Below the pieces are notes generated by a model, which saw only the letters and a list, made by a program, of their open reading frames with translations, did not search any database and was not told the origin of the DNA. A stretch of 64,000 nt of DNA from Thermoleophilia bacterium (GTDB taxonomy: Bacteria; Actinomycetota; Thermoleophilia; BMS3ABIN01), in contig JACWAD010000094.1 of the NCBI GenBank assembly GCA_014874175.1, forward strand, positions 3,158-67,157, given 5' to 3'. Both the position numbers and the translations under genes were made by a program. Positions 7,644 to 50,011 of the stretch are shown here, in pieces (position 1 is the stretch's first letter; each line of letters begins with the position of its first letter).

Positions 7644-7698
7644 AACTGACAAAAGCAACCTTTCTTTACCACGTGAAACTTTAAACGTGAAACTTTTT

Positions 7699-11106: not shown

Positions 11107-11202
11107 GCTTTATAATTAGCCTGCAAAAAAGGGATAAATTTAGCGGCAATCAGCGCTCGTTCAGGGCGGAAAAGAAGATTTGGGGCGGTTGCTTCAAAAA
11201 AA

Positions 11203-11219
11203 CGTTTCAATAAGAAACG
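11203..11219. promoter_or_regulatory. 17-bp palindrome CGTTTC-N5-GAAACG, candidate enhancer-binding-protein UAS ~100 bp upstream of the sigma-54 promoter
   Basis: Perfect inverted repeat CGTTTCAATAAGAAACG. More GAAAC repeats follow (GCGAAACAGTTAACAGAAATTCTGACGAAAC). Confidence 0.4.
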
Positions 11220-26578: not shown

Positions 26579-27628
26579 ATGATGTCAGCCCCGGACTTTA
26601 AAAAAGCACTGGCCCGCATCAACAGCTTCAAGAAAGAGAAGTTGAAGGGAAGGCTGTTGATGATTCTTGTTGCCACTTACTTTTTGTTAATCAGCAGTTT
26701 TATGATATTTAACGGAATGTGGTTCTCGCCGGACCAGTTCATCATTGCCGGCCTGGTCCTCGCCCTGTTTGTCGCCCAGCCGCTGGCGTTTCTGCGCGAC
26801 TGGATTCCTTTCGTTTTCCTCTTTCTAAGCTACGAATACCTGCGCGGCCTGGCGCCAAAACTGGGGATGAGCGTGCATATTTTTCCAATGATTCACGTGG
26901 ACCAGTTTCTGGCGCGCGGGGTGCTGACGGCCAATCTCCAGAAAATTCTTTACACACCAGGCAGTCTCCACATTTACGATTATTTCTTTTCCATCCTCTA
27001 TATGCTGCATTTTGTCTCGCTGCTCGTTTTTGCCTTTTTCCTCTGGATTAAAAAAAGGCACGTTTACAAGCGATTTGTCGTGACCACAATCGCCCTTGCC
27101 TACGCGGGTTTTCTCACTTACGTGCTTTACCCGGCGATGCCGCCCTGGATGGCTTCTAGTAAAGGTTTTATTCCCCCTGTCGCCAACGTCGTCAGCGACA
27201 CTTTTAATTCTTTTGTAAAGACGGTGCATTTTCCCAGCCTTTACCAATTCATGGATCCAAATCCGGTTGCCGCCATGCCTTCACTCCATGCTGCTTTTCC
27301 GATGCTGGTCTACCTGTTTATGGTTGACATCTTTGGGAAAAGAGCTAGGCCTTTCATCATTTACCCGGTCCTGGTCTGGATTGCCATCATTTATACCGGC
27401 AATCATTATATCATAGATACTATTGTTGGTATATTATATGCTTATGTGGCCTTCTACGCGGTGAAGTTTTTCTATAACAGAAAAGAAGGAAAAGAACTGG
27501 CCGGGCAGGAGGGACCCGGATTGCCACGGGGCGCTCTTCCGGCCTGGGAGGCGGAAGGGTTCAGCCTGGCTGCCGGCGAACTGCCGTCAAGCGATGCCGG
27601 CGCCTCTGGTGGCGAGGCCCGGAATTGA
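26579..27628 (+). CDS. PAP2-superfamily membrane protein (phosphatidic acid phosphatase type 2/AUR1-like)
   Basis: 349 aa polytopic membrane protein; PSLH and NHYxxD motifs. Codon usage and GC are visibly lower than in neighbours; low-complexity GC-rich C-terminal tail. Confidence 0.7.
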   Translation: MMSAPDFKKALARINSFKKEKLKGRLLMILVATYFLLISSFMIFNGMWFSPDQFIIAGLVLALFVAQPLAFLRDWIPFVFLFLSYEYLRGLAPKLGMSVHIFPMIHVDQFLARGVLTANLQKILYTPGSLHIYDYFFSILYMLHFVSLLVFAFFLWIKKRHVYKRFVVTTIALAYAGFLTYVLYPAMPPWMASSKGFIPPVANVVSDTFNSFVKTVHFPSLYQFMDPNPVAAMPSLHAAFPMLVYLFMVDIFGKRARPFIIYPVLVWIAIIYTGNHYIIDTIVGILYAYVAFYAVKFFYNRKEGKELAGQEGPGLPRGALPAWEAEGFSLAAGELPSSDAGASGGEARN

Positions 27629-27682
27629 ACCGGGGACGCCAGGATTTTCAGTCCTGCGCTCTACCAACTGAGCTACCTCGCC
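27607..27682 (-). tRNA. tRNA-Phe (anticodon GAA), CCA encoded
   Basis: Minus-strand sequence GGCGAGGTAGCTCAGTTGGTAGAGCGCAGGACTGAAAATCCTGGCGTCCCCGGTTCAATTCCGGGCCTCGCCACCA folds as a cloverleaf (7-bp acceptor, GCTC/GAGC D-stem, anticodon loop CTGAAAA, TΨC loop TTCAATT). Confidence 0.9.
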
Positions 27683-30626: not shown

Positions 30627-30753
30627 TATTTTCAGGTCCTCAGAACAAGCGGGGATAGCAGTCGGGAAATAACCAGAAAAAGGCGTTTCACGTTTAACGT
30701 GCTATTTGTTATTTATCATGAAACGTTAAACATGAAACGTTAAGCGGGGTTTT

Positions 30754-31702: not shown

Positions 31703-31736
31703 CGCTGCCTGACCCTTCAGGCAGCGAAAAATGTTT
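31703..31736 (+). terminator. rho-independent terminator after the FAH gene
   Basis: GCGCTGCCTGA-CCCT-TCAGGCAGCG stem followed by AAAAATGTTT. Confidence 0.55.
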
Positions 31737-31818
31737 AGAAGCCGTCCATCCGGAAAATAATCTGTTATCGGCGGCGGACGCGCCGTCAGTGTTTTGCTTA
31801 ACTGAAAGGAATAACCGG

Positions 31819-35467: not shown

Positions 35468-36937
35468 TTAGCTGCCGATGATCTTTGCCACCGCGTCCTG
35501 GGCGGCGTTCAGGATTGGCGCCGGCAGCACGCCCAGGATGATCACCGCCGCCGTGGCCAGGCCCAGCCCCAGGCTGAGGTCCCAGGAGCGCCCGTCTGCC
35601 GGCTCCATGGCGGTCGCAACTTCATCGGAAGGCTCGCGCATGTACATATAGACGATCACCCGCAGGTAATAGAAGGCCGAGACGACGCTGAAGAGGACGC
35701 CGATCACGGCCAGCCAGGCGTATCCGGCGTCGACGACGCTGGCAAACAGGTAGAATTTTGCCAGGAAGCCGGCGGTGGGAGGGATGCCGGCCAGGGAAAA
35801 CATCAGCACGGCCATGACGCCGGCGGCGCCGGGGAAGCGGCGCGCCAGGCCTGCCATCTCGCCCAGGCTGTCGTTAAATCTGGCTGAGTTGGCGAGGAAA
35901 ACAAGCACGCCGAAGGCGCCCATGTTCATGGCGGCGTAGGCAGCCAGGTAGAAGAGGATGGCGGAGGAGCCAAAGCTGCTATGGCTCTGGCCGGCGGCGA
36001 TCATGGCCAGGAGAAGGTAGCCGACATGGGCAATGCTGGAGAAGGCCAGCATCCGCTTCAGATCGCGCTGCAAAAGCGCCATGGTGGCGCCAATCAGCAT
36101 GGTGGCGATGGCGATCGCGATCATCAGCGGCACCCAGCGGGCCTGCTCGCTGCCCAGCATTATTGTGAAAAACTTGATAATGGCGGCAAAAGCGGCGATT
36201 TTGGGGCCAACCGACAGGAACGCCGCCGCCGGGGTAGGGGCGCCCTGGTAGACGTCCGGCGCCCAGCCGTGGAAAGGGGCTGCCGCCACCTTGAAAGCGA
36301 AGCCGCCCAAAAGCAGTACGATGGCGATCACGAGCACGTGGCCGTCCAGTGATCCGGAACTGACAGCGGCGCTGATCTGTTGATAATTTGTGCTGCCGCT
36401 GAGGCCGTAAAGCAGCGCCATGCCAAAGAGCAGGATCGCCGAGGCAAACGAGCCGGTGAGGAAGTATTTCAGCGACGCCTCGATGCTGCGCTCGCGCCCG
36501 CGGAAGAAGCCGGCCAGCAGGTAGCTGCAGATGGCCATCAGCTCCAGGCCGACAAAGAAGGTGGCAAGATCAATGGCCGAGGCCATCACCATCATGCCGA
36601 CTGTCGCCAGCAGGATGAGGGCGTAGTAGTCGCCCAGCAGGCGCCCGCTCAAGGCCAGGTGTTTTTCCGAGAGCAGCATTGCCAGCACAGCCACCGCCAG
36701 CAGGAGAATCTTGAAGAAAACGGTAAACCTGTCCAGGGCGATGCCGTTCGAGAACGTGGAGAACTGCTCAGAGCGCGCCAGCCATACCGACGCAGCCGCC
36801 GGCAGGCAGGCCATGATTCCCAGCCAGCTTAATCCCCGCCGCCCTTCCGGCGGCAGAAACGGGTCGATTAAAAGCAGCACCAGCGCCGCCGCAACCAGCA
36901 TCAACTCCGGTACTATGGCGACGACGGCATGCTGCAT
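35468..36937 (-). CDS. nuoN: NADH-quinone oxidoreductase subunit N
   Basis: 489 aa polytopic antiporter-like subunit; last gene of the nuo operon. Confidence 0.9.
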   Translation of the reverse strand: MQHAVVAIVPELMLVAAALVLLLIDPFLPPEGRRGLSWLGIMACLPAAASVWLARSEQFSTFSNGIALDRFTVFFKILLLAVAVLAMLLSEKHLALSGRLLGDYYALILLATVGMMVMASAIDLATFFVGLELMAICSYLLAGFFRGRERSIEASLKYFLTGSFASAILLFGMALLYGLSGSTNYQQISAAVSSGSLDGHVLVIAIVLLLGGFAFKVAAAPFHGWAPDVYQGAPTPAAAFLSVGPKIAAFAAIIKFFTIMLGSEQARWVPLMIAIAIATMLIGATMALLQRDLKRMLAFSSIAHVGYLLLAMIAAGQSHSSFGSSAILFYLAAYAAMNMGAFGVLVFLANSARFNDSLGEMAGLARRFPGAAGVMAVLMFSLAGIPPTAGFLAKFYLFASVVDAGYAWLAVIGVLFSVVSAFYYLRVIVYMYMREPSDEVATAMEPADGRSWDLSLGLGLATAAVIILGVLPAPILNAAQDAVAKIIGS

Positions 36938-38503
36938 CTAGTGGCCACCTCCAAGGGAGGCGAAAAACCGCGTCAGGAAGTCGCCGTGCTGGGCCAGGTA
37001 AGGACTCATGTGGTCGATCAGATGGCTTGCCGACGGGTGGATGATGTTAATGAAGGTGTCAGGGTAGGCTCCCACCCATACCGCCAGGCCTGCCAGAGGC
37101 GCCAGCGAGGCGATCTCGCGCAGACTCAGGTCTGACAGCCGGAACCATTTCTGATCACGGACTTCGGCAAACATTACCCGCAGGTACATCCAGAGCAGGT
37201 ACGCGGCCGCCAGAATGACGCCGGCGGCGGCCACAACCGCCATCGCCTTGTTGTAGGTGAACAGTCCCAGAAGGCTGAGAAACTCGCCCACAAAACCGGA
37301 AAGCCCCGGCAGGCCCAGCGAGCCCAGGGTGAAGAAAAGCAAGAAGGCGGCCATCACCGGGAATGGCGTGGCCAGGCCGCCCATGGCGGAGATCTCGCGT
37401 GTATGCAGGCGCTCGTACATGAAGCCGACCATCAGGAACAGCGCCCCGGTCAGCAGGCCGTGGCTGAACATCACCAGCAGCGCTCCCTCCAGGCCGATCA
37501 CGGTGAAGGCAAAGATCCCGCCTGTGACAAAGCCCATGTGGCTGACGCTGGAGTAGGCGACCAGCTTCTTTAAATCTTTTTGCACCAGGGAGACCAGGGC
37601 TCCATAGATGATGGCAATTATTGACAGAATGAGGATATAAGGTATAGCAGTCACGACTGCGTCCGGGAAAAGCGGTATACAGAAGCGAATGATGCCGTAG
37701 CCGCCCATCTTCAGCAGCACGCCGGCGAGGATGACGCTGCCCGCGGTGGGAGCCTCGACGTGCGCATCCGGAAGCCAGGTGTGCAGCGGCCACATAGGCA
37801 CCTTGATGGCAAAGGCGATAAAGAAAGCCAGAAAGGCCGCCATCTGCACCGGGAAGGAAAAGACGGCGTGCTGGAGCTGGTCCAGGTCGAAGACCGGGGC
37901 CGCGTACTGGTCCGGCCGCGCCAGGTAGGCGATGCCGACGATGGCGACCAGCATCAGAACGCTGCCGGCCATCGTAAAGAGGAAAAACTTGAGAGCCGCA
38001 TAGACGCGGCGGGGACCGCCCCAAACGCCGATGATGAAATACATCGGGATCAGCATGATCTCCCAGAAAACGTAGAAAAGAAGGAGGTCGCGGGCGCAGA
38101 AGGTGCCGATCATGCCGGTCTCCAGGAACAGGAACGAGGCAAAAAAGCCAAGCTCGCGGTCCTTGATGTAGTTCCAGGATGCCGGGATGATGATAAGGGA
38201 AAGCAGGGTTGTCAAAAGGATAAGCAGGACGCTGATGCCGTCCACGCCCATGTGGTAACTGGCGCCAATCCGCTGGATCCAGTTTACTTTTTCGATGAAC
38301 TGAAAGTCAGCGGTGTACTGGTCGAATTTCCAGAGCATCATGAGGGAGAGGACGAAGGTGGCGGCCGTCGCCGCCAGGGCCGCGCTCTTGTAAAGGCGGG
38401 GCCGGCCGCGCATGAACAGGAGCATCACGACCCCCCCCAGGGTAGGCAGGAAGGTCATGACGCTCAAAATCGGAAAGCCGATCTGGGATTGGAAAGAATA
38501 CAT
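36938..38503 (-). CDS. nuoM: NADH-quinone oxidoreductase subunit M
   Basis: 521 aa antiporter-like subunit. Confidence 0.9.
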   Translation of the reverse strand: MYSFQSQIGFPILSVMTFLPTLGGVVMLLFMRGRPRLYKSAALAATAATFVLSLMMLWKFDQYTADFQFIEKVNWIQRIGASYHMGVDGISVLLILLTTLLSLIIIPASWNYIKDRELGFFASFLFLETGMIGTFCARDLLLFYVFWEIMLIPMYFIIGVWGGPRRVYAALKFFLFTMAGSVLMLVAIVGIAYLARPDQYAAPVFDLDQLQHAVFSFPVQMAAFLAFFIAFAIKVPMWPLHTWLPDAHVEAPTAGSVILAGVLLKMGGYGIIRFCIPLFPDAVVTAIPYILILSIIAIIYGALVSLVQKDLKKLVAYSSVSHMGFVTGGIFAFTVIGLEGALLVMFSHGLLTGALFLMVGFMYERLHTREISAMGGLATPFPVMAAFLLFFTLGSLGLPGLSGFVGEFLSLLGLFTYNKAMAVVAAAGVILAAAYLLWMYLRVMFAEVRDQKWFRLSDLSLREIASLAPLAGLAVWVGAYPDTFINIIHPSASHLIDHMSPYLAQHGDFLTRFFASLGGGH

Positions 38504-38506
38504 TGT

Positions 38507-38880
38507 TTAACGTTTCACTGAATAGGTTTCATGATATCTATGGCCGCGTATTTTTGTTTCTTTCAGGTAATTCATAAAACCGTAAATTAACTCGCTGGTC
38601 GATTTCGCAACTAACTTCATTGATTTAAATTCATCTGCTGACAAATAGCCTTGATCATGTGCCACATATAATTGGGCCCTGACTTCACCTGCAGAGCCTT
38701 TAGCCAAAGATAGGAAATACAGAAGCTCCTTTGTTTCTCCTCTTTCAAAGCCCTCGGCAATATTGGCCATCACGGATAAGGAGGCTCTGCGTGTCTGATC
38801 TTTCAGGTTGAAATCTTTTGCAAACGCTCCTTTTACTTGATTGCGAATATACAGCCTTTGTCAACTCTCTCTTCAAATCG
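38507..38880 (-). pseudogene. degenerate 'four helix bundle protein' (TIGR02436 / 23S rRNA-intervening-sequence protein family) inserted between nuoL and nuoM; N-terminal half frameshifted
   Basis: Low-GC island. Intact C-terminal part ...SVMANIAEGFERGETKELLYFLSLAKGSAGEVRAQLYVAHDQGYLSADEF... The upstream helix (FEERVDKGCIFAIK*) is in another frame with stops. Confidence 0.55.
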
Positions 38881-38969
38881 CCGCACAGTTGTCACATTCT
38901 CTCCTTATCAACTTTCAGCTTCCGCAAGAGAAGCTAAATTCGATACGTTAAACGTTAAACGTTAAACGG

Positions 38970-40859
38970 TCAAAGCATTAAAAGTATGTAGACGATCATC
39001 AGCGCCAGCAGTCCCAGGAACATGGCGAACAGGTAGCCCTGTACTTTTCCCGCCTGGATCGGCCTCAGCAGCCGGCCGGCGCCCACCGACAGCCAGCCGG
39101 CGCCGTTGACAGCGCCGTCGATGACGCCGTCGTCGACGATGCGCCAGAGCCAGCCGGAGAAGCGGCGCAGGGGGTTGATAATAACGGCGAAATATATCTC
39201 GTCAACATAGTACTTGTTCAGGAGCAGGGGATAAAGGCGGCCGGCGCGCTTGCAGGCGGCCGCCGGCAGAAACGGGCAGCGCAGGTAAAAATGCCAGGCC
39301 AGCAGGATGCCGCCAATGCCCACCGCCGCGGAGATGGCCATAAGGCTCCCTGACAGAAAACTGAACTCGTGCGCCGGCGCCACAATGGCGGCGGCAAAGA
39401 CGCGGTGCAGGAAATGGTCGATGTGGCCGCCTTCGGGCGGAATGCCAAGCAGGAGCCCGGCCAGCACCGTTGGCACGGACAGCACGATCAGCGGCGCCGT
39501 CATCACCGGCGGCGACTCGTGAGCGTGCGCAAAAACCTTGGCGTCGCCGCGCGGCTCATTGTGGAAAGTCATGAATATCAGCCGGAAGGAATAAAAAGCG
39601 GTCAGGAAGACCGTAATCAGGGCCACGATCCAGAAGTACCAGTAGCCCTCGCTGAAAGCCCCGGAAAGGATGGCGTCCTTGCTGAAGAAGCCGGAGAGGC
39701 CGGGGAAACCGGAAAGGGCAAGGGCGCCGATGAAGAAAGTCCAGTAAGTTATCTTGATCTTCTTTTTCAGGCCGCCCATCTTGCGCATGTCCTGCTCGCC
39801 GCCGAGGGCATGGATCACCGATCCCGAGCAGAGGAAGAGCAGGCCCTTGAAGAAGCCGTGCGCCAGCAGGTGGAACATGGCCGCCGCCCAGGCGCCGACG
39901 CCTAGGGCCATAAACATGTAGCCGAGCTGGCTGACGGTGGAGTAGGCCAGCACCTTCTTGATGTCATTCTGGACCATGGCGATGCTGGCGGCGAAGATGG
40001 CGGTAAATGTTCCCACGGCGGCCACCACCAGCATGGCCGTGTGCGAGTGGGCGAACAGGGGGCTGGAGCGGGCCACCATATAGACGCCGGCGTTAACCAT
40101 GGTGGCGGCGTGAATCAGCGAGCTGACCGGCGTCGGGCCTTCCATCGCGTCCGGCAGCCAGACGTGAAGCGGGAACTGGGCGCTCTTGCCCACAGCGCCG
40201 GTAAAGAGGAGCAGGCAGATGGCGGTGACCATGCCGCCGCCGAGAGTGCCGGCGGCGGCGAAGACGCCGCTGTAGCTCAGCGTTCCCAGCGTCACGAAGA
40301 TGAGCATGATCCCCAGGCTGAAGCCAAAGTCGCCGACGCGGTTGACCAGGAAGGCTTTCATGCCCGCGTTGGAGGCGCTCAGGCGCGGGTACCAGAAGGC
40401 AATCAGCAGGTAGGAGCACAGGCCCACTGCCTCCCAGAAGACATAGAGGAGCAGGTAGTTGTTTGCCAGGACCAGCATGAACATCGAGAACATGAACAGG
40501 TTGATGTAGGCGAAGAAGCGGTAGTAGCCCTTGTCGCCGTGCATGTAGCCGATCGAGTAGATGTGCACCATCAGGCCGACCGTGGACACGACCAGCAGCA
40601 TGATGGCGGTCAGCTCATCGACCAGAAAGCCTATGTCAACATGGAACTTGCCGGCGGCAATCCAGGTATACAACTGCCAGGAGAGAGTCTGGCCGCGCTC
40701 GACCTGGATAAAGACATACATGGACAGGGCCCAGCTTAAGGCGACCGAGCCCACGGACAGGTAGTGGCTTTTCTCCCTGAAGTAGCGGCGCCCGAAGAAC
40801 CCCGTGATTATAAACGACGCCAGCGGTAGCAACGGTATGAGCAGAACGGCCGCTTTCAT
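38970..40859 (-). CDS. nuoL: NADH-quinone oxidoreductase subunit L
   Basis: 629 aa antiporter-like subunit with a long C-terminal extension. Confidence 0.9.
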   Translation of the reverse strand: MKAAVLLIPLLPLASFIITGFFGRRYFREKSHYLSVGSVALSWALSMYVFIQVERGQTLSWQLYTWIAAGKFHVDIGFLVDELTAIMLLVVSTVGLMVHIYSIGYMHGDKGYYRFFAYINLFMFSMFMLVLANNYLLLYVFWEAVGLCSYLLIAFWYPRLSASNAGMKAFLVNRVGDFGFSLGIMLIFVTLGTLSYSGVFAAAGTLGGGMVTAICLLLFTGAVGKSAQFPLHVWLPDAMEGPTPVSSLIHAATMVNAGVYMVARSSPLFAHSHTAMLVVAAVGTFTAIFAASIAMVQNDIKKVLAYSTVSQLGYMFMALGVGAWAAAMFHLLAHGFFKGLLFLCSGSVIHALGGEQDMRKMGGLKKKIKITYWTFFIGALALSGFPGLSGFFSKDAILSGAFSEGYWYFWIVALITVFLTAFYSFRLIFMTFHNEPRGDAKVFAHAHESPPVMTAPLIVLSVPTVLAGLLLGIPPEGGHIDHFLHRVFAAAIVAPAHEFSFLSGSLMAISAAVGIGGILLAWHFYLRCPFLPAAACKRAGRLYPLLLNKYYVDEIYFAVIINPLRRFSGWLWRIVDDGVIDGAVNGAGWLSVGAGRLLRPIQAGKVQGYLFAMFLGLLALMIVYILLML

Positions 40860-40926
40860 GTCAGCCTCTTGCCCTGTGGCGGGCGGCCCCTCCGGCCGCT
40901 GCCGCTGTTTTGTTTTCTGGCAAGGA

Positions 40927-41235
40927 TCATCCCTTCATCTCATCCAGCTCATCTACATCAAGCCTCTCGCGCAGGCGGAACATGGCGATGCCGATCGCCA
41001 GCCCGACGGCGACCTCGGCGGCGGCAATGGCCAGCACAAAGAAGACGAAAGCCTCTCCCCGGCCTGCTCCCAGGTTGGCGTAATTTGAGAACGCCGCCAG
41101 GGCGATATTGACGGCGTTAAACATCAGCTCCAGGCACATCACCACCATGATGATGTTGCGCCGCGCCAGCACGCCCCAGGCGCCCACCGCGAAGAGGACG
41201 CCCGCCAGGACCAGGTAATGTTGCAGCGGCGTCAA
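40927..41235 (-). CDS. nuoK: NADH-quinone oxidoreductase subunit K
   Basis: 102 aa, 3 TM helices. Confidence 0.85.
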   Translation of the reverse strand: MTPLQHYLVLAGVLFAVGAWGVLARRNIIMVVMCLELMFNAVNIALAAFSNYANLGAGRGEAFVFFVLAIAAAEVAVGLAIGIAMFRLRERLDVDELDEMKG

Positions 41236-41729
41236 GGGCGCCGCTCCCGCCGGGCCAGCAAAACGGCGCCGACAATTGCCGCCAGCAGCACCAGCGACGC
41301 CAGCTCGAATGGAAATGCGTACTGGTTAAAAAGCAGGCGGGACAGATTGGCGGTGGCCGGATTCTTGGGACTGCTGCCGGCGTTGAACCTGGCGCTGCCA
41401 AGCACCAGGCCCAGCACAACGGCAAGAGCCGCCGCTGCGGGAAGCGCTGCCCAGGACTGGCGGTGGAAAAAGATGCCGACGGCGCCGCTGCGCCGGCGGG
41501 TGAGCATGATGGCAAACAGGATCAGGATTGATATGGCGCCCACATATATAAGAAGCTGCGACGCGGCCAGCAGCTCCGCATTCAGGGTAACAAACACGGC
41601 CGCCACCCCAGAGAAGCAGGCAATCATGGCCATAGCGCTGTAAATCAGGTTCTTAAGCGACACCATCAGCACGGCCGGAATGATGACCAGCGCCGCCACG
41701 ATGTAGAAAACTGGCGTGGAGAATTGCAT
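41232..41729 (-). CDS. nuoJ: NADH-quinone oxidoreductase subunit J
   Basis: 165 aa; 4 nt overlap with nuoK. Confidence 0.85.
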   Translation of the reverse strand: MQFSTPVFYIVAALVIIPAVLMVSLKNLIYSAMAMIACFSGVAAVFVTLNAELLAASQLLIYVGAISILILFAIMLTRRRSGAVGIFFHRQSWAALPAAAALAVVLGLVLGSARFNAGSSPKNPATANLSRLLFNQYAFPFELASLVLLAAIVGAVLLARRERRP

Positions 41730-44257
41730 TACTCGGGCTCCCCCTTTTTGTCCGCCGGCCCGGCCTGGGCGGAGCCGGCCCCGGGCTCCCGCGCCGCGGG
41801 ACGGCCGCTTCCGCTGTCGGGGACTGCCTTCTCTTCGGCGTGCACCTCTTTTTGATACTGCTTGGCGGCGTGGTCCTGGCCCGGGCTGGCGGCATGATCC
41901 TGCTGGAAAGTGCCTTCGGGACTAAGGTCCGGTCCGCGGGCCATCTCCAGCAGATTATAGCCAAGCTGCCCGTGCCCGGTCGTGGCCAGCTCGAAGGCGG
42001 GCGTGATCGCCAGCGACTCCACCGGGCAGACCTCGACGCAATCGGCGCAGAAAATGCAGCGGGACGTGTCCAGGCGCCAGTCCGCCAGCTGCCGTTCTTT
42101 CATAAAGAGCGCCCCGGTGGGGCAGATGGTGGCGCAGCGCCCGCAGGAGACGCAGTCGGTGTCATTGAGGGAGCGGTCAAAAGGCGGGGTGACGATGGCG
42201 TGCCGGGCGCGGTAGGCAAAATCGTAAACGCCGGCGCCGGTCTGGTGCTTGCAGACGCGGATGCAGCGGCCACAATCGATGCAGCGGTTGGGGTCGCGCT
42301 GGATGAAAGCATGAGTGGTGTCGCGCCCGTAAAGGTTTTGCTCGCCGGCAAAGCGGTTGCCCTCTTCCTTCACCAGCCCCGCCGCCAGGCTGTAACGCCT
42401 CAACTTGCAGGTCTCGACGCCCTCGCAGATGCACTGCAGGCAGCGGCGGCTTTCGGTGCCGGCGGCGTGCTCGGAAAATCCGCGGTCGATCTCAAGGAAA
42501 TTGCCCTCGCGTTCCTTCTCAGTCAGCTGGGGCGTCAGCTGCCGCTCTATCTTCTCTTCGCGGTAGGCAGGAATGGCAATCATCGGCGGTTTGTCAAAGG
42601 CGGGCAGGGCGGCTTCGTAAGCAGCCATGTCCTCCCCTTTCAGGAAAGCGTCCATGGCCCAAGCGGCCTTCTTGGCCCCGCCGATGGCTTCCACCACCGT
42701 CTTGGCGCCGGTGGCGCCGTCGCCGGCGGCAAACACCTGCGGCCGCCCCGTCTGGCAGGTCTTGGGATTGATCTCGATTGTCTGCCAGCGGGTGCAGATG
42801 ACCCCGCCTTCTTCAGGAAAGATATCGCATTCTTCCCTGGTCTTGACGTCCACATATTTCAGCTTGGGCAGCTGGCCGATTGCCGGGATGATCGTGTCAA
42901 CCCCGGTGAGATATTCCGAGCCGGCCACCGGCTGCGGGCGGCGGCGGCCGCTTTCATCGGGCTCGCCCAGCTCCATTTTCTGACAGACTATGCCGGTGAC
43001 GCGTCCGTCAGCGGCCTCGACTTTGACCGGCGCCGCCAGGAAAGTGAACTTGATGCCCTCCTCCATGGCGTCATGCACCTCGATCTGGTCGGCCGGCATC
43101 TCTTTCTGGGTGCGGCGGTAGATGACTGTCACCTCTTTGGCTCCCAGGCGCCTGGAGACGCGGGCGGCATCCATGGCCGAAAAACCGCCGCCGATGACCG
43201 CGACTCGGTCGCGAATATCGGGCGGATTTCCCATCGCCACATCGCGGAGGAACTCGACCACCGGCATTACGCCTTCCATGTCTTCGCCCTCAACCCGCAT
43301 CGAGCGGCTCTCATGGGCGCCTATTCCCAGGAAAACGGCGTCAAATCCCATCTCGCCGAGGAGATCGTCGAGGGAAAAATCAGGCCCGAGGGCCATGCCG
43401 GTTTTCATCTCGACGCCCATCGCCCAGAGCGGCTCCAGCTCGGCGTTTAAAACTTTTTTGGGAAGGCGGTACTCAGGAATGCCGTAGCGGAGCATGCCGC
43501 CGGTATCCGGGAGCGCCTCGAAGATGGTGACGGCATGGCCCCTGAGCGCCAGGTAGTAGGCGTTGGCCAGCCCGGCCGGCCCGGCGCCGATAACCGCCAC
43601 CCGCTTGCCGGTGGCAGGGGCGGGCCGCTCCGGTTTAAACCCCTTTTCGATGGCGACGTCTCCCACGAACCGGTGGCAGAGGCGGATGGAGATCGGCTCT
43701 TCTACCTCGCTGCGGCGGCAGGCGCTTTCGCAAGGATGCGGGCATACCCGGCCCACGACAGCCGGGAAGGGCAGGTTTTCTTTCAGCACCCGCTGCGACT
43801 CGTCATAATCGCGGTCGGCGATCAGGCCCAGGTAGGCAGGGATGTCAACATTGGTGGGGCAGCCGTACTTGCAAGGCGGCAGGCAGTAGGCGTTATGGTC
43901 GGACAGGAGCAGCTCCAGATAAGTCTTGCGCAGCCTCAGCACCCGCTCGCTGCCGGTGGTGATGGCCATGCCCCCCTTGACCCTGGTGGCGCAGGCGGGA
44001 AGCGGCTGCTCCTCTCCCTCGACCTCAACCACGCAGACGCGGCAGCCGCCAAACGGCTCCAGGCCCTTGACATGGCAGAGGTAAGGGATCTTGATCCTGG
44101 CGGATTTGGCCGCCTCCAGGATGGTGTCGCCCTCATGCGCTATTACAGCCTGTCCGTTAATTGTCAGGGTCACCGGGGCGCCGGCTCCGGAAATTCGCAC
44201 CGGCGGCAGGGTCTGCGGCTTGTCGCCTAACCCATCAGTCATGAATTTTAATTCCAA
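41729..44257 (-). CDS. fusion protein: N-terminal [2Fe-2S] NuoG-N-like domain + GltD/NfnB-like NAD(P)H:FAD oxidoreductase + two 4Fe-4S ferredoxin motifs + NuoI C-terminal half
   Basis: 842 aa. Residues ~55-80 LCHVKGLEPFGGCRVCVVEVEG ([2Fe-2S]). Residues ~165-200 VCPHPCESAC...LCHRF (GltD N-terminal cluster). GKRVAVIGAGPAGLANAYYLA...GGMLRYGIPEYRLPK (GltD FAD/NADPH). Residues ~725-775 DWRLDTSRCIFCADCVEVCPVESLAITPAFELA...GYNLLEMA (NuoI C-terminal half). TTG start in track; alternative ATG at 44242. Confidence 0.7.
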   Translation of the reverse strand: MELKFMTDGLGDKPQTLPPVRISGAGAPVTLTINGQAVIAHEGDTILEAAKSARIKIPYLCHVKGLEPFGGCRVCVVEVEGEEQPLPACATRVKGGMAITTGSERVLRLRKTYLELLLSDHNAYCLPPCKYGCPTNVDIPAYLGLIADRDYDESQRVLKENLPFPAVVGRVCPHPCESACRRSEVEEPISIRLCHRFVGDVAIEKGFKPERPAPATGKRVAVIGAGPAGLANAYYLALRGHAVTIFEALPDTGGMLRYGIPEYRLPKKVLNAELEPLWAMGVEMKTGMALGPDFSLDDLLGEMGFDAVFLGIGAHESRSMRVEGEDMEGVMPVVEFLRDVAMGNPPDIRDRVAVIGGGFSAMDAARVSRRLGAKEVTVIYRRTQKEMPADQIEVHDAMEEGIKFTFLAAPVKVEAADGRVTGIVCQKMELGEPDESGRRRPQPVAGSEYLTGVDTIIPAIGQLPKLKYVDVKTREECDIFPEEGGVICTRWQTIEINPKTCQTGRPQVFAAGDGATGAKTVVEAIGGAKKAAWAMDAFLKGEDMAAYEAALPAFDKPPMIAIPAYREEKIERQLTPQLTEKEREGNFLEIDRGFSEHAAGTESRRCLQCICEGVETCKLRRYSLAAGLVKEEGNRFAGEQNLYGRDTTHAFIQRDPNRCIDCGRCIRVCKHQTGAGVYDFAYRARHAIVTPPFDRSLNDTDCVSCGRCATICPTGALFMKERQLADWRLDTSRCIFCADCVEVCPVESLAITPAFELATTGHGQLGYNLLEMARGPDLSPEGTFQQDHAASPGQDHAAKQYQKEVHAEEKAVPDSGSGRPAAREPGAGSAQAGPADKKGEPE

Positions 44258-44306
44258 GTTTCAAGTTTCAAGTTCCCGGTTGGGCCGCAAGGTTGTGCGC
44301 CCCAAC

Positions 44307-46121
44307 TCATTCTCCGCACTTCCCGACGCGGCAGCGCCCCTCGGCGGCATGCTCGAGGAACTCGTCCCGGAAAAACTTCAGGCCGGTGAGAAGCGGCCTG
44401 ACAGCGCCGCGGCCGAGGCCGCAGAGAGCTCCCGCCTTAATGTCCGCCGCCAGCGCCTCGGCAAGCTCCAGGTCCGCCTCGCTTCCCTCTCCCGAGCAAA
44501 TTCTTTCAACTATGTCAAGGAGGCGCCAGGTGCCAAGGCGGCAGGGCACGCACTTGCCGCATGACTCGCCGGAAGCAAAGGCAAGGCACTGCCTGACCAT
44601 GTCCACGATGCATTCATCCTGGCCCAGAATCCTGATAGTGCCTGAGCTCAAATCTCCGCCTGTCTCCCGGATTGAATCAAAGTCAAGCGGAATGTCAAAA
44701 AGGCCGGGCGAGAGGAAGCCGCCCCAGACGCTGCCAACGAGGGCCGCCCTGGGCTCGCTGATGAAGCCGCCTGCTTCCGTGGCGACGAGTTTTTTCAGGC
44801 TGGTGTCCAGCGTGGCCTCGTAGAGACCGGGACTCTCCACTGCTCCCAGCAGGGTGAAAAGCTTGGTGCCGGGGGCGTGCTCCGCCCCCAGTTGCCGGAA
44901 GGCGCCGGCGCCGCTTGAGATAATCCAGGGCACGGTTGCCAGCGTCTCCACGTTTTCCACTACTGTCGGCATCCCCCTGAGGCCTTTTTCAGCCGGGTAG
45001 GGAGGCCGCACGCCCGGCATGGGCCGCCTGCCTTCCAGGGTGGCGATAAGAGCTGTTTCCTCGCCCCCGACAGGCGCGCGCGGCACTTCGATTACTCGAA
45101 TGGAAAAAGAAAAGTCCGTTCCCGGCAGTTCCTCTTCCAGCAAGCCGTTGCCGGCAGCCTGCCCCACCGCCCGTCTGATCCTCTCGGCGGCAAGCTGGTT
45201 CTCGGCGGTGAGATAAATGATGCCCTCCCTGGCTCCCGCCGCGTAACCGGCCACGATCATGCCCTCGATGACCGCGTGCGGATTTTCCTCGAGGATGACG
45301 CGGTCCTTGATAGACCCGGGATCGCCCTCCTCGCCGTTGCAGATGATGAATTTCTTGGCCGCCTTTTGCCGGGCGGCCACCTGCCACTTGCGCCCGGTGG
45401 GGAAGCCGGAGCCGCTCCGTCCCCTGAGGCCGCTTACCGCGATCTCGTCAACGACCTCTGCCGGCGCCATCTCCGTAAGCGCCTTGGTGACGGCTTTGTA
45501 GCCGCCGGCGCCGGTGTAGTCTTTGATGCTCTCGGGGTCGACCTTGCCGACGTTTCCCAGCAGGATGGGGGGGCAGCCGGCGGCCGTCACCCGCGCGGGT
45601 GGCTCCTGGCGCTCCGGCCCCAGCTGAGGCGCGCCCGGCCCCAGTTGGTCATAGAAAGTGGCGACGCCAAAGACCTGGCTCAGCCAGACGCCGCTCTTTA
45701 AAGCGGTGGCGGCAAGCTCGTCTTCGCTCAGCTCCCCGGCAGCGAGCAGGGAGCTGGCCAGGCAGCCGTAGCGGCCGGGCGCGGCCTGCCCTGGTTCACC
45801 GGTTGGCCAGGGCGGCATCGCCACCGCCTTTTCGCCACGGTTCAAGAATGAGAGCATCGGGCCGGCGCCGGCGTCAAAGCGCCATACCTTCTCCGGCCGC
45901 TTTTCATCATAAATAATCTTGATAGCAACGGCGGGGCAGACCTGCTCGCAGAAAGTGCAGGCGATGCAGCGCGGCGTGGCGGCGTCGTCCTTCAGGCGCA
46001 GACGGATCAGCCCCCGGCTGCGCAGCGGCAGCTGGCGGCGCACCTCGGGATACTGCACCGTCACTTTCTTGCGGAAGAGGTGCGCCCCCGTTATCTTCAG
46101 GCCTTTGAGTAATCCGATCAT
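44307..46121 (-). CDS. fusion protein: NuoI N-terminal half (first 4Fe-4S motif) + degenerate NuoE-like linker + NuoF-like NADH/FMN/[4Fe-4S] domain
   Basis: 604 aa. N-terminus MIGLLKGLKITGAHLFRKKVTVQYPEVRRQLPLRSRGLIRLRL...CIACTFCEQVCPAVAI (NuoI). ...GVATFYDQ (NuoE-like). GLRGRSGSGFPTGRKW and SGESCGKCVPCR (NuoF). Confidence 0.7.
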   Translation of the reverse strand: MIGLLKGLKITGAHLFRKKVTVQYPEVRRQLPLRSRGLIRLRLKDDAATPRCIACTFCEQVCPAVAIKIIYDEKRPEKVWRFDAGAGPMLSFLNRGEKAVAMPPWPTGEPGQAAPGRYGCLASSLLAAGELSEDELAATALKSGVWLSQVFGVATFYDQLGPGAPQLGPERQEPPARVTAAGCPPILLGNVGKVDPESIKDYTGAGGYKAVTKALTEMAPAEVVDEIAVSGLRGRSGSGFPTGRKWQVAARQKAAKKFIICNGEEGDPGSIKDRVILEENPHAVIEGMIVAGYAAGAREGIIYLTAENQLAAERIRRAVGQAAGNGLLEEELPGTDFSFSIRVIEVPRAPVGGEETALIATLEGRRPMPGVRPPYPAEKGLRGMPTVVENVETLATVPWIISSGAGAFRQLGAEHAPGTKLFTLLGAVESPGLYEATLDTSLKKLVATEAGGFISEPRAALVGSVWGGFLSPGLFDIPLDFDSIRETGGDLSSGTIRILGQDECIVDMVRQCLAFASGESCGKCVPCRLGTWRLLDIVERICSGEGSEADLELAEALAADIKAGALCGLGRGAVRPLLTGLKFFRDEFLEHAAEGRCRVGKCGE

Positions 46122-46153
46122 AAAGTCACCGTTTCACGTTTAACGTCAACATG

Positions 46154-47266
46154 TCACCCCTCTGCTTGGCTCAGGGCAAGAGTTGTTTTTCTCCCGACCC
46201 GTTTGCGCAGCAGCGCTCTTCGCAGCACCGGCCGGAACAGCAGGATGATCGCGATCACCGACGCCCAACTGAACGCCGCCACCGGCGGCAGAAAATTGTC
46301 CGGCAGCAGGATGATGAGCAGGCCGGTCACGCCCAGGTTCACCAAGCTGAGCGGGATCAGCACCTTCCAAGCAAAATTCATCAGCTGATCAACCTGGAGC
46401 CGCGGAAACGTGGCAAGGAACCAGATGACGACAAAGGCCAGCGCCAGCACCTTGAGAATCAGCCAGCCGGGACTGCCCGCAAAGGGTCCGCGCCAGCCGC
46501 CCAGGAACAGGGTGGCGCCTGTCAGCGACCAGATTGACGCGTTGCCCCATTCTACCAGGCCGTAAAAGAAGCCAAAGCGCATGCCGCTGTACTCGGTCAG
46601 GTAGCCGGCCACTAGCTCCGATTCCGCCTCGGGCAGGTCAAAAGGGGTGCGGTTAAGCTCAGCCATGCCGGCGATGATGAAGACGAGGAAAGCCAGCGGC
46701 TGTACGGCGATGTACCAGATTTTCCCCTGGGCGCCAACGACGTCGTTGAGGCTGAGGGAGCCCACTAGCATGGCGATGATAATGATGTTGAGGATCATCG
46801 GAACCTCGTAGGAGACCATCTGCGCCACTGACCGGAGGCCGCCCAGGAGCGAATATTTGTTATGCGACGCCCAGCCGGCCAGCAGGATGCCGAGCACCGT
46901 GAAAGAGCTGAAGGCAACAATAAAAACGAGCCCCACGTTCAGGTTGGCAATGGTGAAGCCTTTGCTGAAAGGAATTACGGTCACCGCCAGCACCGGCGTG
47001 ATAAATGCGACAGCCGGCGCCAGCCTGAACAGCAGCCGGTCTGCCTTCAGCGGCGCCACGTCTTCCTTCAACAGCAGCTTCAGAAAGTCCGCAATCGGCT
47101 GGAAGAAGCCCTGGGGGCCGACGCGGTTGGGGCCGAGGCGGTCACTGATGAAGCCCGATAGGCGGCGCACGGCGAACGGAAGCACCAGGGCGCTGAGAGC
47201 CGGCACCGCCAGCCCGATCACCAGCGCCGCAATCAAGTGGATGATGAAAGACGCGCCCCAGCTCAC
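46154..47266 (-). CDS. nuoH: NADH-quinone oxidoreductase subunit H
   Basis: 370 aa, 8 TM helices; NuoH motifs. Confidence 0.9.
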   Translation of the reverse strand: MSWGASFIIHLIAALVIGLAVPALSALVLPFAVRRLSGFISDRLGPNRVGPQGFFQPIADFLKLLLKEDVAPLKADRLLFRLAPAVAFITPVLAVTVIPFSKGFTIANLNVGLVFIVAFSSFTVLGILLAGWASHNKYSLLGGLRSVAQMVSYEVPMILNIIIIAMLVGSLSLNDVVGAQGKIWYIAVQPLAFLVFIIAGMAELNRTPFDLPEAESELVAGYLTEYSGMRFGFFYGLVEWGNASIWSLTGATLFLGGWRGPFAGSPGWLILKVLALAFVVIWFLATFPRLQVDQLMNFAWKVLIPLSLVNLGVTGLLIILLPDNFLPPVAAFSWASVIAIILLFRPVLRRALLRKRVGRKTTLALSQAEG

Positions 47267-48342
47267 CGGTCAACCGCCCCCATGATCAGGTCGAGGCTGC
47301 CGGCGATGCCGACAACGTCGGCGACTTTGTTGCCCGGCAGGATTTTTGGCATCGTTGACAGGGCGACGAAACAGGAATCGCGCATCTTCAGCCGGTAAGG
47401 CCGCAGCGATCCATCGGAGACAAGGTAGTTGCCCCACTCGCCGCGGCCGGTCTCCACGGCGCGGTAGATCTCTCCCGCCGGCGGCCTCAGCATGGGCGGC
47501 ACCCGCATGTTGACCGGGCCGCCCGGCAGGGCGTCCAGAGCCTGCTCGATTATGCGCACCGACTGGCGCAGTTCCTCGATGCGGCACTTGTACCTGTCAA
47601 AGCTGTCGCCGTTGACGCCGACAGGGATGTCAAAATCAAGCTGGGGGTAAACCGAATAGGAGTCGTGCCGCCTGAGGTCCATCGCCACGCCCGAGGCGCG
47701 CAGGTTGGGCCCCGAGAGGCCGAAGTCGAGCGCCTGCCCGGCGCTGATGACCCCCATCCCCAGCGACCGCGCCAGGAAGATCTCGTTGCCGGAGATCAGC
47801 TCTTCGTACTCGTCGATCCTGGCCGGGAACCGTTTCAGAAACTGGCGGCACTGCTCCTCGAAGCCGTCCGGGAGGTCGTAACGCACTCCGCCGGCGCGGG
47901 CGTAGTTGTACATCATCCGCTGTCCCGTCAGCAATTCCAGCAGATCAATGACATCTTCGCGGTCGCGGAAAGTCCATAGCACCGGCGTCAGTGCGCCCAG
48001 GTTGAGCAGGTAGTCGCCGATGGCCATGTGATGGCTGATGATGCGGTTCAGCTCGCCAGCGATCACGCGCAGGTATTCGGCCCGCGGGGGCGGCTCGATT
48101 TCCATCAGCCCTTCAATGCAGCGCACGTAGGCCCATTCCATGAAAAAGCCGGCCAGGTAGTCCAGCCGGCTGAGCATGGAGAAGAACTGCAGGTAAGTGC
48201 GGTTCTCTGCCAGCTTCTCGAAGCCGCGGTGCAGGTAGCCGATGCTGGGATCAACGCTGACGACCATTTCGCCGTCGAGGCGCAGCACCAGCCTGAGGAC
48301 GCCGTGTGCAGACGGGTGCTGGGGGCCCATGTTTAAAACCAT
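47263..48342 (-). CDS. nuoD: NADH-quinone oxidoreductase subunit D (49 kDa)
   Basis: ...MVLNMGPQHPSAHGVLRLVLRLDGE...; the track ORF runs to 48555 but the upstream 70 codons are low-complexity spacer. Start assigned to the ATG at 48342 (uncertain; a TTG ~38 codons upstream is possible). Confidence 0.8.
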   Translation of the reverse strand: MVLNMGPQHPSAHGVLRLVLRLDGEMVVSVDPSIGYLHRGFEKLAENRTYLQFFSMLSRLDYLAGFFMEWAYVRCIEGLMEIEPPPRAEYLRVIAGELNRIISHHMAIGDYLLNLGALTPVLWTFRDREDVIDLLELLTGQRMMYNYARAGGVRYDLPDGFEEQCRQFLKRFPARIDEYEELISGNEIFLARSLGMGVISAGQALDFGLSGPNLRASGVAMDLRRHDSYSVYPQLDFDIPVGVNGDSFDRYKCRIEELRQSVRIIEQALDALPGGPVNMRVPPMLRPPAGEIYRAVETGRGEWGNYLVSDGSLRPYRLKMRDSCFVALSTMPKILPGNKVADVVGIAGSLDLIMGAVDR

Positions 48343-48493
48343 CTCTTCTAAATGGAGGTCCGGTTGATCGCGGCCTATGTCTGTTTCTTGAACGATTGTC
48401 TGACTCCCAAAATCAGTTTCTTGTTTCTGGTTTCCGGTTTCGCGTTCAAACTTCAAAACTCGAAGCCTGCAACTCGCAACTGGAAACCTGAAT

Positions 48494-49042
48494 TCATGAT
48501 CTCTCGCCCCGGTCGCCTTCCCCGGGGAGCCGGCGCGGCGCGGCGATGCCCTCAAACTGCCATTCCCGGCGCTGCTGCCGGTGCGGCCGGGCGTCCTTGC
48601 GCAGGGGATAGACGCCGTCTGCGCTTGTCGTCAGGATGCGGCGCAGATCCGGATGGCCTTCAAACTCTATACCGAGGAGGTCGTAGGTTTCCCGCTCGTG
48701 CCAGCCGGCGGTGCTCCAGACATCGGACACAGTCGGCGCCACGGGCTGTTCCCGGTCCAACTGCGCCCGCATTTCAGCCACAACGGGGTGGTTGACCGAG
48801 CGCAGAATATAGACGGCGTCCATCCTGTCCTTATAGTCAATGCCGCCGGCAAAACTCAGGTATCTGAAGGAAAGCTGCTTGTGGTCCCGCAGCTTTAAAG
48901 CCGCCTCATGCAGCTTGCCTGGCTCAAGCGCAATTACGATCCTGTCCGCTTCCAGGTAAACGTCCGTGGCCAGGCCGCCCAGCAGATGCTGGGCCAGTTC
49001 TGCTGCTTCTGCCTCGCCCAAGGCTGGGGACTCCGCGCTCAC
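48494..49042 (-). CDS. nuoC: NADH-quinone oxidoreductase subunit C (30 kDa)
   Basis: 182 aa; NuoC fold; different frame from nuoD (not a CD fusion). Confidence 0.85.
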
Positions 49043-49578
49043 TCTTCACCGCCGTCTGCATCGTACTGGACCATCGTGCCGGCCGCCAGCCGGCGCGCCA
49101 GGCCCACCTGTGACTGTTTGCGGATTTTTTCCTGCAACTGGCGCATGCCGTAGATGAGCGCCTCCGGGCGGGGCGGGCAGCCGGGAATGTAGATGTCAAC
49201 CGGCACCAGCAGGTCGGCCCCCTGGACCACGTTGTAGGAATCCCAAAACATGCCGCCGCCGCAGGCGCAGGCCCCCATCGCCACCACCCAGCGCGGCTCC
49301 GCCATCTGGTGGTAGAGGTGTACCAGCACGGGCGCCATCTTGTCGGTGATCGTGCCCGATACGATCATCACATCCGACTGCCTGGGGGTGGCCCGGAACA
49401 CCTCCATGCCGAAGCGGGCGATATCATGGCGCGGCATGGCGGTGGAGATCATCTCGATGGCGCAGCAGGCGAGCCCGTAAGTAAAGGGCCAGAGCGAGTT
49501 CAGCCGCGCCCAGTTAAACAGCGAGTCCGTGGCGGCTGTCACTATATTGGGATGCTCGAACCGCTCCAGGACTGACAT
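49039..49578 (-). CDS. nuoB: NADH-quinone oxidoreductase subunit B (20 kDa, N2 cluster)
   Basis: 179 aa; CCAIEM...GACACGGG...GCPPRP cysteine motifs. Confidence 0.9.
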
Positions 49579-49579
49579 G

Positions 49580-50011
49580 TCAGCTCCACTCCAGGGCGCC
49601 CTTGGCCCAGGCGTAGAGGAGCCCGAACAGGAGCACGGCGATAAAGATCATCATCTCGGCAAATCCTGTCTTTCCCAGGCTGCGGAAGACCAGCGCCCAT
49701 GGGTAGACAAAAACGGCTTCCACGTCAAAGATGACAAACAGGAGGGCGTAGATGTAATAGCGGACTGCGAACGGGGACCAGCTGTCGCCAACCAGCAGCT
49801 CGATGCCGCATTCGTAGGAGCTTAACTTCTCGGAATAGGGGTGGTAGCGTTGCAGCAGCCGCGATATGGCGAGGGTGGCAAAGACAAAGCCGGCGCCCAC
49901 AATCCCCAGGGCGACGACGTAAACGTAGCTTTGCGCATAATCAGGAGTCACTGCGGCTCCCGCGAAAAGCTGCACGGATTTGTGGCCCTCATTCCTGTAA
50001 GCATGTCGCAC
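49580..50011 (-). CDS. nuoA: NADH-quinone oxidoreductase subunit A
   Basis: 143 aa, 3 TM; YECG motif; first gene of the nuo operon. Confidence 0.85.

Follow-up and report, generated by a model that had tools for sequence, protein, structure and literature searches.

We describe a family of short tandem repeats with a seven-nucleotide unit in the non-coding gaps of a 64,000-nt stretch of DNA from a Thermoleophilia bacterium (GenBank assembly GCA_014874175.1, contig JACWAD010000094.1; hereafter the window), two of which enclose a gene of the PF05635 family within the nuo operon. The classic case of tandem heptamers is the short tandemly repeated repetitive sequences (STRRs) of cyanobacteria, whose units CCCCAGT, TTGGTCA and CAACAGT were reportedly described by Mazel et al. 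in 1990. Tandem heptamers are the commonest intergenic repeat of prokaryotes, and the reason for their abundance is unexplained. According to the summary in PMC4679880 of work by Mrazek et al. (2007), the long simple-sequence repeats (LSSRs) of prokaryotes most often have heptanucleotide units, for which polymerase slippage is the proposed origin. In a SPADE survey, too, tandem heptamers outnumbered every other class of intergenic repeat, and no function is known for them (PMC6344855). The heptamer repeats (TTTTGAA)3 and (GACYAAT)8 of Nostoc lie near start codons (bioRxiv 10.1101/2022.06.06.494920), and in marine Beggiatoaceae TAACTGA repeats, with two to six mostly forward copies per set, mostly stand a few nucleotides before starts and often replace the Shine-Dalgarno sequence (PMC4679880).

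The arrays of the window belong to this known, functionally unexplained class of LSSR- or STRR-like repeats. They share with LSSRs the 7-nt head-to-tail unit, the intergenic position, the many dispersed loci, and the labile copy number and sequence; they differ in being short (two to five units), in their RAAC core and in their many inverted pairs, and neither a hairpin arrangement nor a gene cargo is mentioned in the LSSR surveys as summarised. As with STRRs and the Nostoc repeats, the heptamers are dispersed, non-coding and near promoters or start codons. The unit shapes of those repeats (GGTC/GTTC plus an A-rich tail) resemble units in two relatives (loci L145 and L148), whereas the window has GTTTMAC/GTKAAAC and variants, its relatives are not cyanobacterial, and its arrays are not STRR1–3 proper. 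The TAACTGA unit is also close, with ATAACTG in Beggiatoaceae, GAAACTG in L145 and GAAACGT in the window. The TAACTGA genome, however, has essentially one heptamer and a single inverted set, while in the window the two variable bases change from one site to the next, arrays are frequently paired in inverted orientation, and a gene lies within one such pair. The window contains no TAACTGA arrays; its units, read on the mRNA strand, are GAAACGT, TAAACGT, GAAACTT and GAAACCN instead.

In Leptospira, a 23S rRNA intervening sequence carries an S23p / PF05635 open reading frame (ORF). The PF05635 family was first found in such intervening sequences and is homologous to Avd, a protein of diversity-generating retroelements (PMC10053308). 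In Coxiella burnetii, the S23p ORF of the intervening sequence follows two to three tandem GACAGAT units that lie at the RNase III site; their copy number varies among strains, and the ORF is decaying (PMC4990558). The window likewise has complementary flanks forming a stem round a PF05635 ORF, which is decaying in Coxiella and frameshifted here. It differs in that the host is the mRNA of the nuoL/nuoM operon rather than rRNA, both arms are heptamer arrays, and processing by RNase III is only a possibility. Repetitive extragenic palindromic (REP) sequences, bacterial interspersed mosaic elements (BIMEs) and REP doublets forming hairpins (REPINs) are imperfect palindromes of 20–40 nt that carry a tag (GTAG or CGTC), vary little across a genome and are linked to the REP-associated tyrosine transposase RAYT (PMC3116915, PMC3733652). 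The arrays resemble them as short, abundant extragenic elements, often between co-transcribed genes and forming mRNA hairpins, but their arms are periodic, differ from site to site and have no tag, which sets them outside the REP/REPIN class. No transposase-like gene was present among the window ORFs scanned, which were only part of all ORFs.

Arrays of a seven-nucleotide unit in the window

The feature shared by the sites is a head-to-tail tandem period of 7 nt, with variable copy number and both orientations. The unit reads GTTTMAC on one strand and GTKAAAC on the other, so that the mRNA strand carries RAAAC plus two variable bases. A sequence-only reading of the window had described these sites as recurrent copies of an AACGTT-centred motif. 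Every string that it quoted is present at the coordinates it gave, and the recurrence it noticed is well beyond chance: the two-unit string GTTTMACGTTTMAC, allowing up to two mismatches, has 15 matches in the 64-kb window where 0.40 would be expected, and none of 100 dinucleotide shuffles had more than 3. Three in-phase RAAC cores spaced 7 nt apart occur at five loci (0.0 expected), and Tandem Repeats Finder reports period 7 at 7671, 30721, 38945, 44255 and 48416, as well as period 14 at the 3′ arm upstream of the FAH gene. The AACGTT-centred palindrome is not the common feature, as AACGTT is the joint between two 7-nt units (..TAAAC|GTT..). The observation was thus real but misdescribed, and is confirmed in part.

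Nine non-coding arrays are present in 64 kb, mostly between co-directional genes, and none lies inside a gene. The intergenic enrichment on which the sequence-only reading had let its motif stand or fall is therefore seen at the scale at which dispersion was assessed, the 64-kb window: ORFs cover about 86% of it, yet every one of the nine arrays is non-coding. Most of the sites listed by that reading are arrays. It overlooked those at 44243–44278 and 48416–48499, and its copy at 11201–11219 is a single 6-bp inverted pair with no array. At gathering thresholds, Rfam found only a tRNA (27610–27682, − strand) in the window, with no rRNA and no known RNA family at the arrays.

Most arrays stand directly before a start codon. 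With the site letters used below, the mRNA strand has 8 nt between the last unit and the ATG at site A and 9 nt at site B, no gap at site C, and a single nucleotide at both site D and site G. These start-proximal copies have the form described for the TAACTGA network (two to six forward copies within a few nucleotides of a start codon), and sites D and G leave no space for a Shine-Dalgarno sequence. The claim that copies lie within about 30 nt of a start in mRNA sense is therefore correct for five arrays (30717–30745, 46131–46150, 44243–44278, 38504–38518 and 55772–55807, at 0–9 nt) and fails for two, namely 7673–7693 in a convergent gap and 38945–38969 right after the nuoL stop codon.

Three layouts of the arrays

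Arms pair at three sites, and the arrays fall into three layouts. In one of them, found between nuoL and nuoM, the loop of a heptamer hairpin holds a PF05635 gene, an arrangement like that of a 23S rRNA intervening sequence. The insert is 466 nt long and bounded by (GTTTAAC)x3 and GTGAAAC GTTAAAC. Its 5′ arm, site E (38945–38969, − strand), reads CC GTTTAAC GTTTAAC GTTTAAC GT in the mRNA, with the three units at 38947–38967, and starts directly after the nuoL stop codon (38970–38972). Its 3′ arm, site D (38504–38518, − strand), reads GTGAAAC GTTAAAC A and is followed by the nuoM ATG at 38503; the plus strand from 38505 reads GTTTAAC GTTTCAC, and an extra in-phase ATGAAAC lies at 38526–38532. 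Sites E and D pair in both the minimum-free-energy and the centroid fold, enclosing the insert. The frameshifted gene in the loop (38507–38895, − strand) belongs to PF05635, named ‘23S rRNA intervening sequence protein’ or four-helix bundle, with a hidden Markov model match of E = 3e-47 over 38510–38860. All 7509 of its homologues are PF05635 members (‘four helix bundle protein’ / ‘S23 ribosomal protein’), and its product is 88 aa. In the predicted fold this ORF sits within stem-forming complementary flanks, as in an intervening sequence, although it lies between nuoL and nuoM and not in helix 25 or helix 45 of 23S rRNA.

In the second layout, opposite arrays form a hairpin with heptamer-built arms and no gene, as at sites A and H. 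Site A lies upstream of the FAH-family gene, which starts at 30754 (+) and follows an aldehyde dehydrogenase gene (aldH) in the Pfam scan. Its 5′ arm (30685–30698, + strand) consists of two perfect units, GTTTCAC GTTTAAC, and its 3′ arm (30717–30745, + strand) reads C ATGAAAC GTTAAAC ATGAAAC GTTAAGC, or GCTTAAC GTTTCAT GTTTAAC GTTTCAT on the opposite strand of 30718–30745. The 3′ arm ends 8 nt (GGGGTTTT) before the FAH ATG. The hairpin (30682–30741, + strand) has 18 bp, pairing 30682–30690 with 30733–30741 and 30692–30700 with 30723–30731, with one C/A mismatch and an AU-rich loop of 22 nt; its z-score is −2.57 and none of 200 shuffles folded equally well. Taken by the sequence-only reading as one motif copy, 30685–30745 does contain the repeats, but as two arrays of opposite orientation that pair as the 18-bp stem. 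Similarly, the near-perfect palindrome reported at 30685–30701 holds a real dyad, CACGTT-T-AACGTG, which is confined to 30689–30701.

Site H (48419–48499, − strand) is a hairpin in the nuoC/nuoD gap with a long interrupted stem (z = −3.93). Its 5′ arm, the inverted partner reaching up to 48499, reads GGTTTCC AGTTGCG AGTTGCA GGCTTCG AGTTTTG, and its 3′ arm (48416–48450) reads TTTGAAC GCGAAAC CGGAAAC CAGAAAC AAGAAAC in the mRNA. The nuoD start is probably near 48342 or 48330 rather than at 48555, which leaves the hairpin at 48416–48499 non-coding.

Sites B, C and G are lone arrays abutting the next start codon. At site B (46131–46150, − strand), the mRNA reads GTTGAC GTTAAAC GTGAAAC and the plus strand GTTTCAC GTTTAAC GTCAAC. 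The same array recurs unchanged in a second sample, and 9 nt separate its end from the ATG at 46121. It was described by the sequence-only reading as the whole nuoH/nuoI junction; the array is real, and it fills most of a 32-nt gap between nuoH and a NuoF-like gene. Site C (44243–44278, − strand; mRNA CGGGAAC TTGAAAC TTGAAAC TTGGAAT TAAAATT C) lies at the junction of the nuoF-like gene with an 842-aa Fer2/GltD-like/Fer4 fusion gene and reaches the start of the latter, which is ATG 44242 and not the mechanically called TTG 44257. Another hairpin, GC-rich and not made of heptamers, lies just upstream in the same gap, at 44279–44306 (− strand), and reads GTTGGG-GCGCACAACCTTGCG-GCCCAAC. Site G (55772–55807, − strand; mRNA GTCAAGC GTTAAAC ATGAACC GTGCAGC GTTTAGC A) is degenerate, with five in-phase GTNNARC units between the pfkB stop codon and the ATG of a small ORF 1 nt away. 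Judged by sequence conservation, the start of this ORF is ATG 55771 and not 55786, because the ATG is conserved in two relatives (L144 and L145); the copy noted at 55788–55808, upstream of a start at 55786, is accordingly a real degenerate array with a different extent and a different start. Three gene starts, 44242, 55771 and about 48342 (nuoD), are thereby corrected.

Site F (7673–7693, + strand) reads GTGAAAC TTTAAAC GTGAAAC followed by T7, which in the GTTTMAC reading is GTTTCAC GTTTAAA GTTTCAC. It lies in the gap between a convergent adenine deaminase gene (5775–7481, + strand) and the gene at 7699–9030 (− strand).

Array positions persist in relatives while the units change

Homologues of the NuoF-like and FAH proteins led to the syntenic contigs compared here. 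The protein relatives are metagenome-assembled genomes (MAGs) labelled Thermoleophilia or Actinomycetota, and the nuoL DNA is 70% identical to that of a ‘Nitrospirae’ MAG. Across these relatives the position and 7-nt architecture of the arrays persist, whereas the unit sequence turns over or the array is absent. In L144, whose NuoF-like protein is 83% identical, the nuoH/F gap is 6 nt, and nuoL and nuoM overlap without a cassette. In L145 (72% identical), the nuoH/F gap holds a 100-nt heptamer hairpin, (AGTTCAA/AGGTCAA)x4 ... (CTTGGAA)x4, and the pfkB gap reads AAACTGG AAACTAG AAACTCG AAACTGG. A PF05635 gene is again present between nuoL and nuoM of L145, here flanked by GTTCAGA-type and (AACTCGG)x4 arms. 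The L145 assembly (GCA_021789835.1, 17085–17180) has a gap (N run) just after the 5′ heptamer arm of this cassette.

The aldH/FAH gap shows the same pattern. In L246 (86% identical), the left side has AGTCCCG/AGGTTTG-type units and the right side reads TAAACCA GAAACTA TAAACGC TAAACCT, and in L245 (85%) the gap reads CGTTTCG CGTTCAG ... CAGACGC AAAACGC GAGACG, with an 11-bp outer stem (z = −2.65). In L247 and L248 (77%), the gap is 51 nt with no array. At the orthologous junctions of L145, L245 and L246, the 3′-arm arrays are also 0–9 nt from start codons.

PF05635 genes and their flanking arms

PF05635 genes are generally associated with complementary heptamer arms; the association is strong and apparently undescribed. 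Among 80 metagenomic PF05635 loci (L165–L244), a period-7 array (at least 12/14 matches, within 150 nt) was found upstream at 56% and downstream at 53%, compared with 1.5% in control windows from the same loci, and periods of 5, 6, 8, 9 and 10 were found at 0–13%. In 26 of the 30 loci with two arms, the unit consensuses of the arms are complementary with at most one mismatch; permuting the partners gave a mean of 7.05 and a maximum of 16 in 5000 permutations. Further PF05635 genes, fetched by exact protein identity (L148–L164), also lie between co-directional genes, for example PSD1/DUF1501 or those of a bacteriophage exclusion (BREX) operon, with inverted arms such as (AGGTCCA)n upstream and (TGGACCT)n downstream, or (GGTTTCT)n upstream and (AGAAACC)n downstream. 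Array copy number varies among the near-identical contigs L148, L152 and L155. For many PF05635 homologues the only known contigs are shorter than 2 kb, which together with the assembly gap in L145 suggests that the cassettes are multi-copy. In the searchable literature we found no account of a PF05635 cassette with heptamer arms, and the Coxiella intervening sequence was the sole published hint that we found.

The converse does not hold. When loci were selected by an array, (GTTTMAC)x3, a PF05635 gene was nearby (within a few kb) in 1 of 141, and the idea that every heptamer array marks a PF05635 cassette was rejected.

Tandem heptamers in other genomes

Tandem triplets of the unit are widespread, as (GTTTMAC)x3 matches 21 stretches of a viral collection and at least 120 stretches of species-representative genomes from many phyla, with Chloroflexota, Nitrospirota, Verrucomicrobiota, Desulfococcaceae, Gemmatimonadota, Acidobacteriota and Bacteroidota among the hosts of the matches listed. 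Arrays at these loci reach 16 or more units, are sometimes inverted pairs, and often adjoin arrays of other heptamers (GCATCAC, GTATCAC, GCCTCAC, GTTTTAC and others). We considered GTTTCAC as a special cross-phylum motif, but this is weakened by two composition-matched scrambles, which as tandem triplets gave 9 and 9 matches against 15 for GTTTCAC in the viral collection. As the scrambles are nearly as frequent, the widespread thing is tandem heptamers generally rather than one shared element. A literature search with exact strings (GTTTCACGTTTCAC and similar) returned unrelated microRNA primers only, and with the heptamers as whole words nothing relevant.

Very long or composite arrays were seen at L053 (7889–7993), L057 (4510–4572), L069 (5425–5683), L129 (848) and L098 (1490–1531). 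A Chloroflexota MAG has 15 or more GTTTCAC units, and Desulfococcaceae HSG8 has alternating blocks of GTTTCAC and GTATCAC. Several long arrays end at contig ends or N runs, and thus probably break assemblies.

Origin and possible function of the arrays

We consider it moderately probable that the sites are a family of short tandem heptanucleotide repeats in non-coding gaps that are born by slippage, are not operators, and exert any effect they have on the mRNA. The arrays would arise and resize by slipped-strand mispairing, as proposed for heptanucleotide repeats generally, and would be tolerated only in places where a change of 7 nt leaves reading frames intact. If they have an effect, it would act on polycistronic mRNA, through its structure, processing or translation start. 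Paired arms may give a stable stem that serves as an RNase III substrate, by analogy with rRNA intervening sequences, or as a 3′-end protector, while an unpaired RAAAC array may cover the place where ribosomes load onto the next cistron with a leader rich in A and free of structure.

Several observations weigh against this account. All units in the window keep the RAAC core and the logo of the PF05635 3′ arm is RRACYTK, both of which hint that some sequences are preferred, more than neutral slippage would account for. A partner arm is missing at sites B, C, F and G, and the stem formed by sites D and E, at about 11–14 bp, would be a short substrate for RNase III. Pairing is not always kept, since at some orthologous sites the arms have no folding advantage over shuffled sequences (L246, z = +1.4; L145 nuoH/F, z = −1.5). 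No copy-number polymorphism was found among three samples of the strain, whose contigs are 99.96–100% identical with unchanged arrays. Where inverted GTTTMAC partners lie within 150 nt in other genomes (L003–L143), 16 of 17 have the order GTKAAAC...GTTTMAC (for example at L009, L030, L049, L065, L100, L101, L108 and L136). This 16-to-1 order is opposite to that of the window and of the PF05635 flanks, and our model gives no explanation for it. Finally, an RNA-level effect of the arrays in this organism is something that we purely infer rather than observe.

The sequence-only reading had offered three explanations, of which the scars of a small repeat element come near the truth, in that tandem repetition of a heptanucleotide underlies the sites and two of the arrays serve as the arms of a PF05635 cassette. 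Another was that the sites are operators of one palindrome-binding transcription factor co-regulating FAH, nuo and other genes. The Rex consensus is TTGTGAA-N4-TTCACAA, and the GTGAA/TTCAC half-sites resemble it; the dyad CACGTT-T-AACGTG at 30689–30701 is a perfect 6-1-6 palindrome, and several sites lie inside a respiratory operon. The dyad, however, is present at one of the nine sites, the others being direct 7-bp repeats of variable copy number with no fixed half-site spacing, and sites B, C, D and E lie in intercistronic gaps of 32–50 nt or abut stop or start codons, where a promoter is not expected. The aldH/FAH, nuoH/F, nuoL/M and pfkB gaps of relatives carry unrelated heptamers or none. 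By contrast, a promoter-like element 3′ of FAH is conserved in sequence in the same alignments, so sequence conservation would have shown. The orthologous position persists and the sequence does not, which is the opposite of operator behaviour. Site architecture, position and turnover together make a Rex, Rrf2 or CRP/FNR type of operator, for which GTTTCACGTTTAACGTGAAAC was named as the DNA affinity bait, highly improbable, and removing a shared regulator of FAH, nuo and the other loci disposes of a tempting false lead. The third explanation survives in altered form: RAAAC arrays might be single-stranded RNA platforms, with one unit per OB-fold of a cold-shock protein (Csp) or S1, acting as translational enhancers or regulators, with the inverted arm as a sequestering anti-enhancer. 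Consistent with this, 3′-arm arrays stand 0–9 nt before starts at sites A, B, C, D and G and in L145, L245 and L246, and sites D and G lack Shine-Dalgarno space. This role has likewise been proposed for the TAACTGA repeats, which S1, Csp or CsrA might bind (PMC4679880), and the Nostoc heptamers were also suggested to affect translation (bioRxiv 10.1101/2022.06.06.494920). Against it, no start codon is near site F and a stop codon precedes site E. Moreover, 137 arrays from other genomes show no excess of ORF starts within 20 nt (18% and 15%, compared with 17% at random positions), although this ORF-based test is too crude and weak to count as a negative. As the heptamers differ between orthologous sites, any RNA binder must be loosely specific. 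We regard this explanation, for which the two-unit RNA (GUGAAACGUUAAAC)2 was named as the Csp/S1 probe, as unlikely.

The remaining alternatives concern the origin of the arrays. They might be terminal arms or solo remnants of a mobile PF05635 cassette, with ORF-less hairpins such as that at 30682–30741 as derivatives resembling miniature inverted-repeat transposable elements (MITEs) or as excision footprints. The nuoL/nuoM insert is such a cassette, present in L145 and absent from the closer L144, PF05635 genes elsewhere have the same architecture (flanking arrays at 56% and 53%, 26/30 complementary), and many of them, like repeats, come from very short contigs. Just one PF05635 gene accompanies the nine arrays of the window, however, and with 1 of 141 array-selected loci near a PF05635 gene, arrays are far commoner than the gene. 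A transposase, a target-site duplication or identical dispersed copies were also not found, and the arms differ from site to site, unlike MITE copies; arms of a mobile element are thus not a likely general source of the arrays. Alternatively, the arrays might be functionless slippage products, kept where they are tolerated, with no RNA or protein-binding effect. This fits the frequency of the scrambles (9 and 9 against 15 in tandem), the variation in presence and unit sequence among relatives and in copy number among near-identical contigs, and the absence of a function in the literature (PMC6344855). It does not fit the PF05635 arms, which stay complementary as the heptamer changes (26/30 against 7 expected), nor the recurrence of arrays at the same junctions where proteins are only 72–86% identical, nor the RRAC core kept by the units. 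These three observations point to constraint or a templated mechanism, and we judge complete lack of function to be rather unlikely.

Beyond the slippage-born family that we favour, we tentatively propose, as a possibility that we would not yet call probable, that PF05635 genes are the cargo of a widespread hairpin cassette with complementary arms, MARGTYY (5′) and RRACYTK (3′). Such a cassette would sit precisely between the cistrons of operons, would be the 23S intervening sequence when in rRNA, and would have ORF-less hairpins (30682–30741) as its minimal form. The arms would co-vary because the stem is the functional part, either as an RNase III site, as a clamp joining the upstream stop and downstream start, or as a binding array for the four-helix-bundle protein. 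If true, this would be a first functional handle on at least part of the bacterial heptamer-repeat excess. The retention of junctions with turnover of sequence, together with the complementary PF05635 arms, points to mRNA stems, RNase III processing and four-helix-bundle binding as candidate functions.

Gene context

The nuo operon (35468–50011, − strand) has an unusual complex-I-like gene order in Pfam: nuoA-B-C-D-H, a NuoF-like gene, the fusion gene, and nuoJ-K-L-M-N. The NuoF-like protein has 604 aa (gene 44307–46121) with the Complex1_51K and NADH_4Fe-4S domains, and the 842-aa fusion (Fer2, a GltD-like pyridine-nucleotide oxidoreductase and 2x[4Fe-4S]) occupies the usual place of nuoI. 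This order is conserved in relatives (L144–L147), whose proteins are 70–83% identical. The promoter-like element 3′ of FAH, TTTAGA-N17-ATAATC (TTTAGAAGCCGTCCATCCGGAAAATAAT), lies at 31734–31761 between FAH and the next gene and is conserved in sequence in L245–L248. Given this conserved element, the listed GTG start of the next ORF, at 31696, is probably too far upstream.

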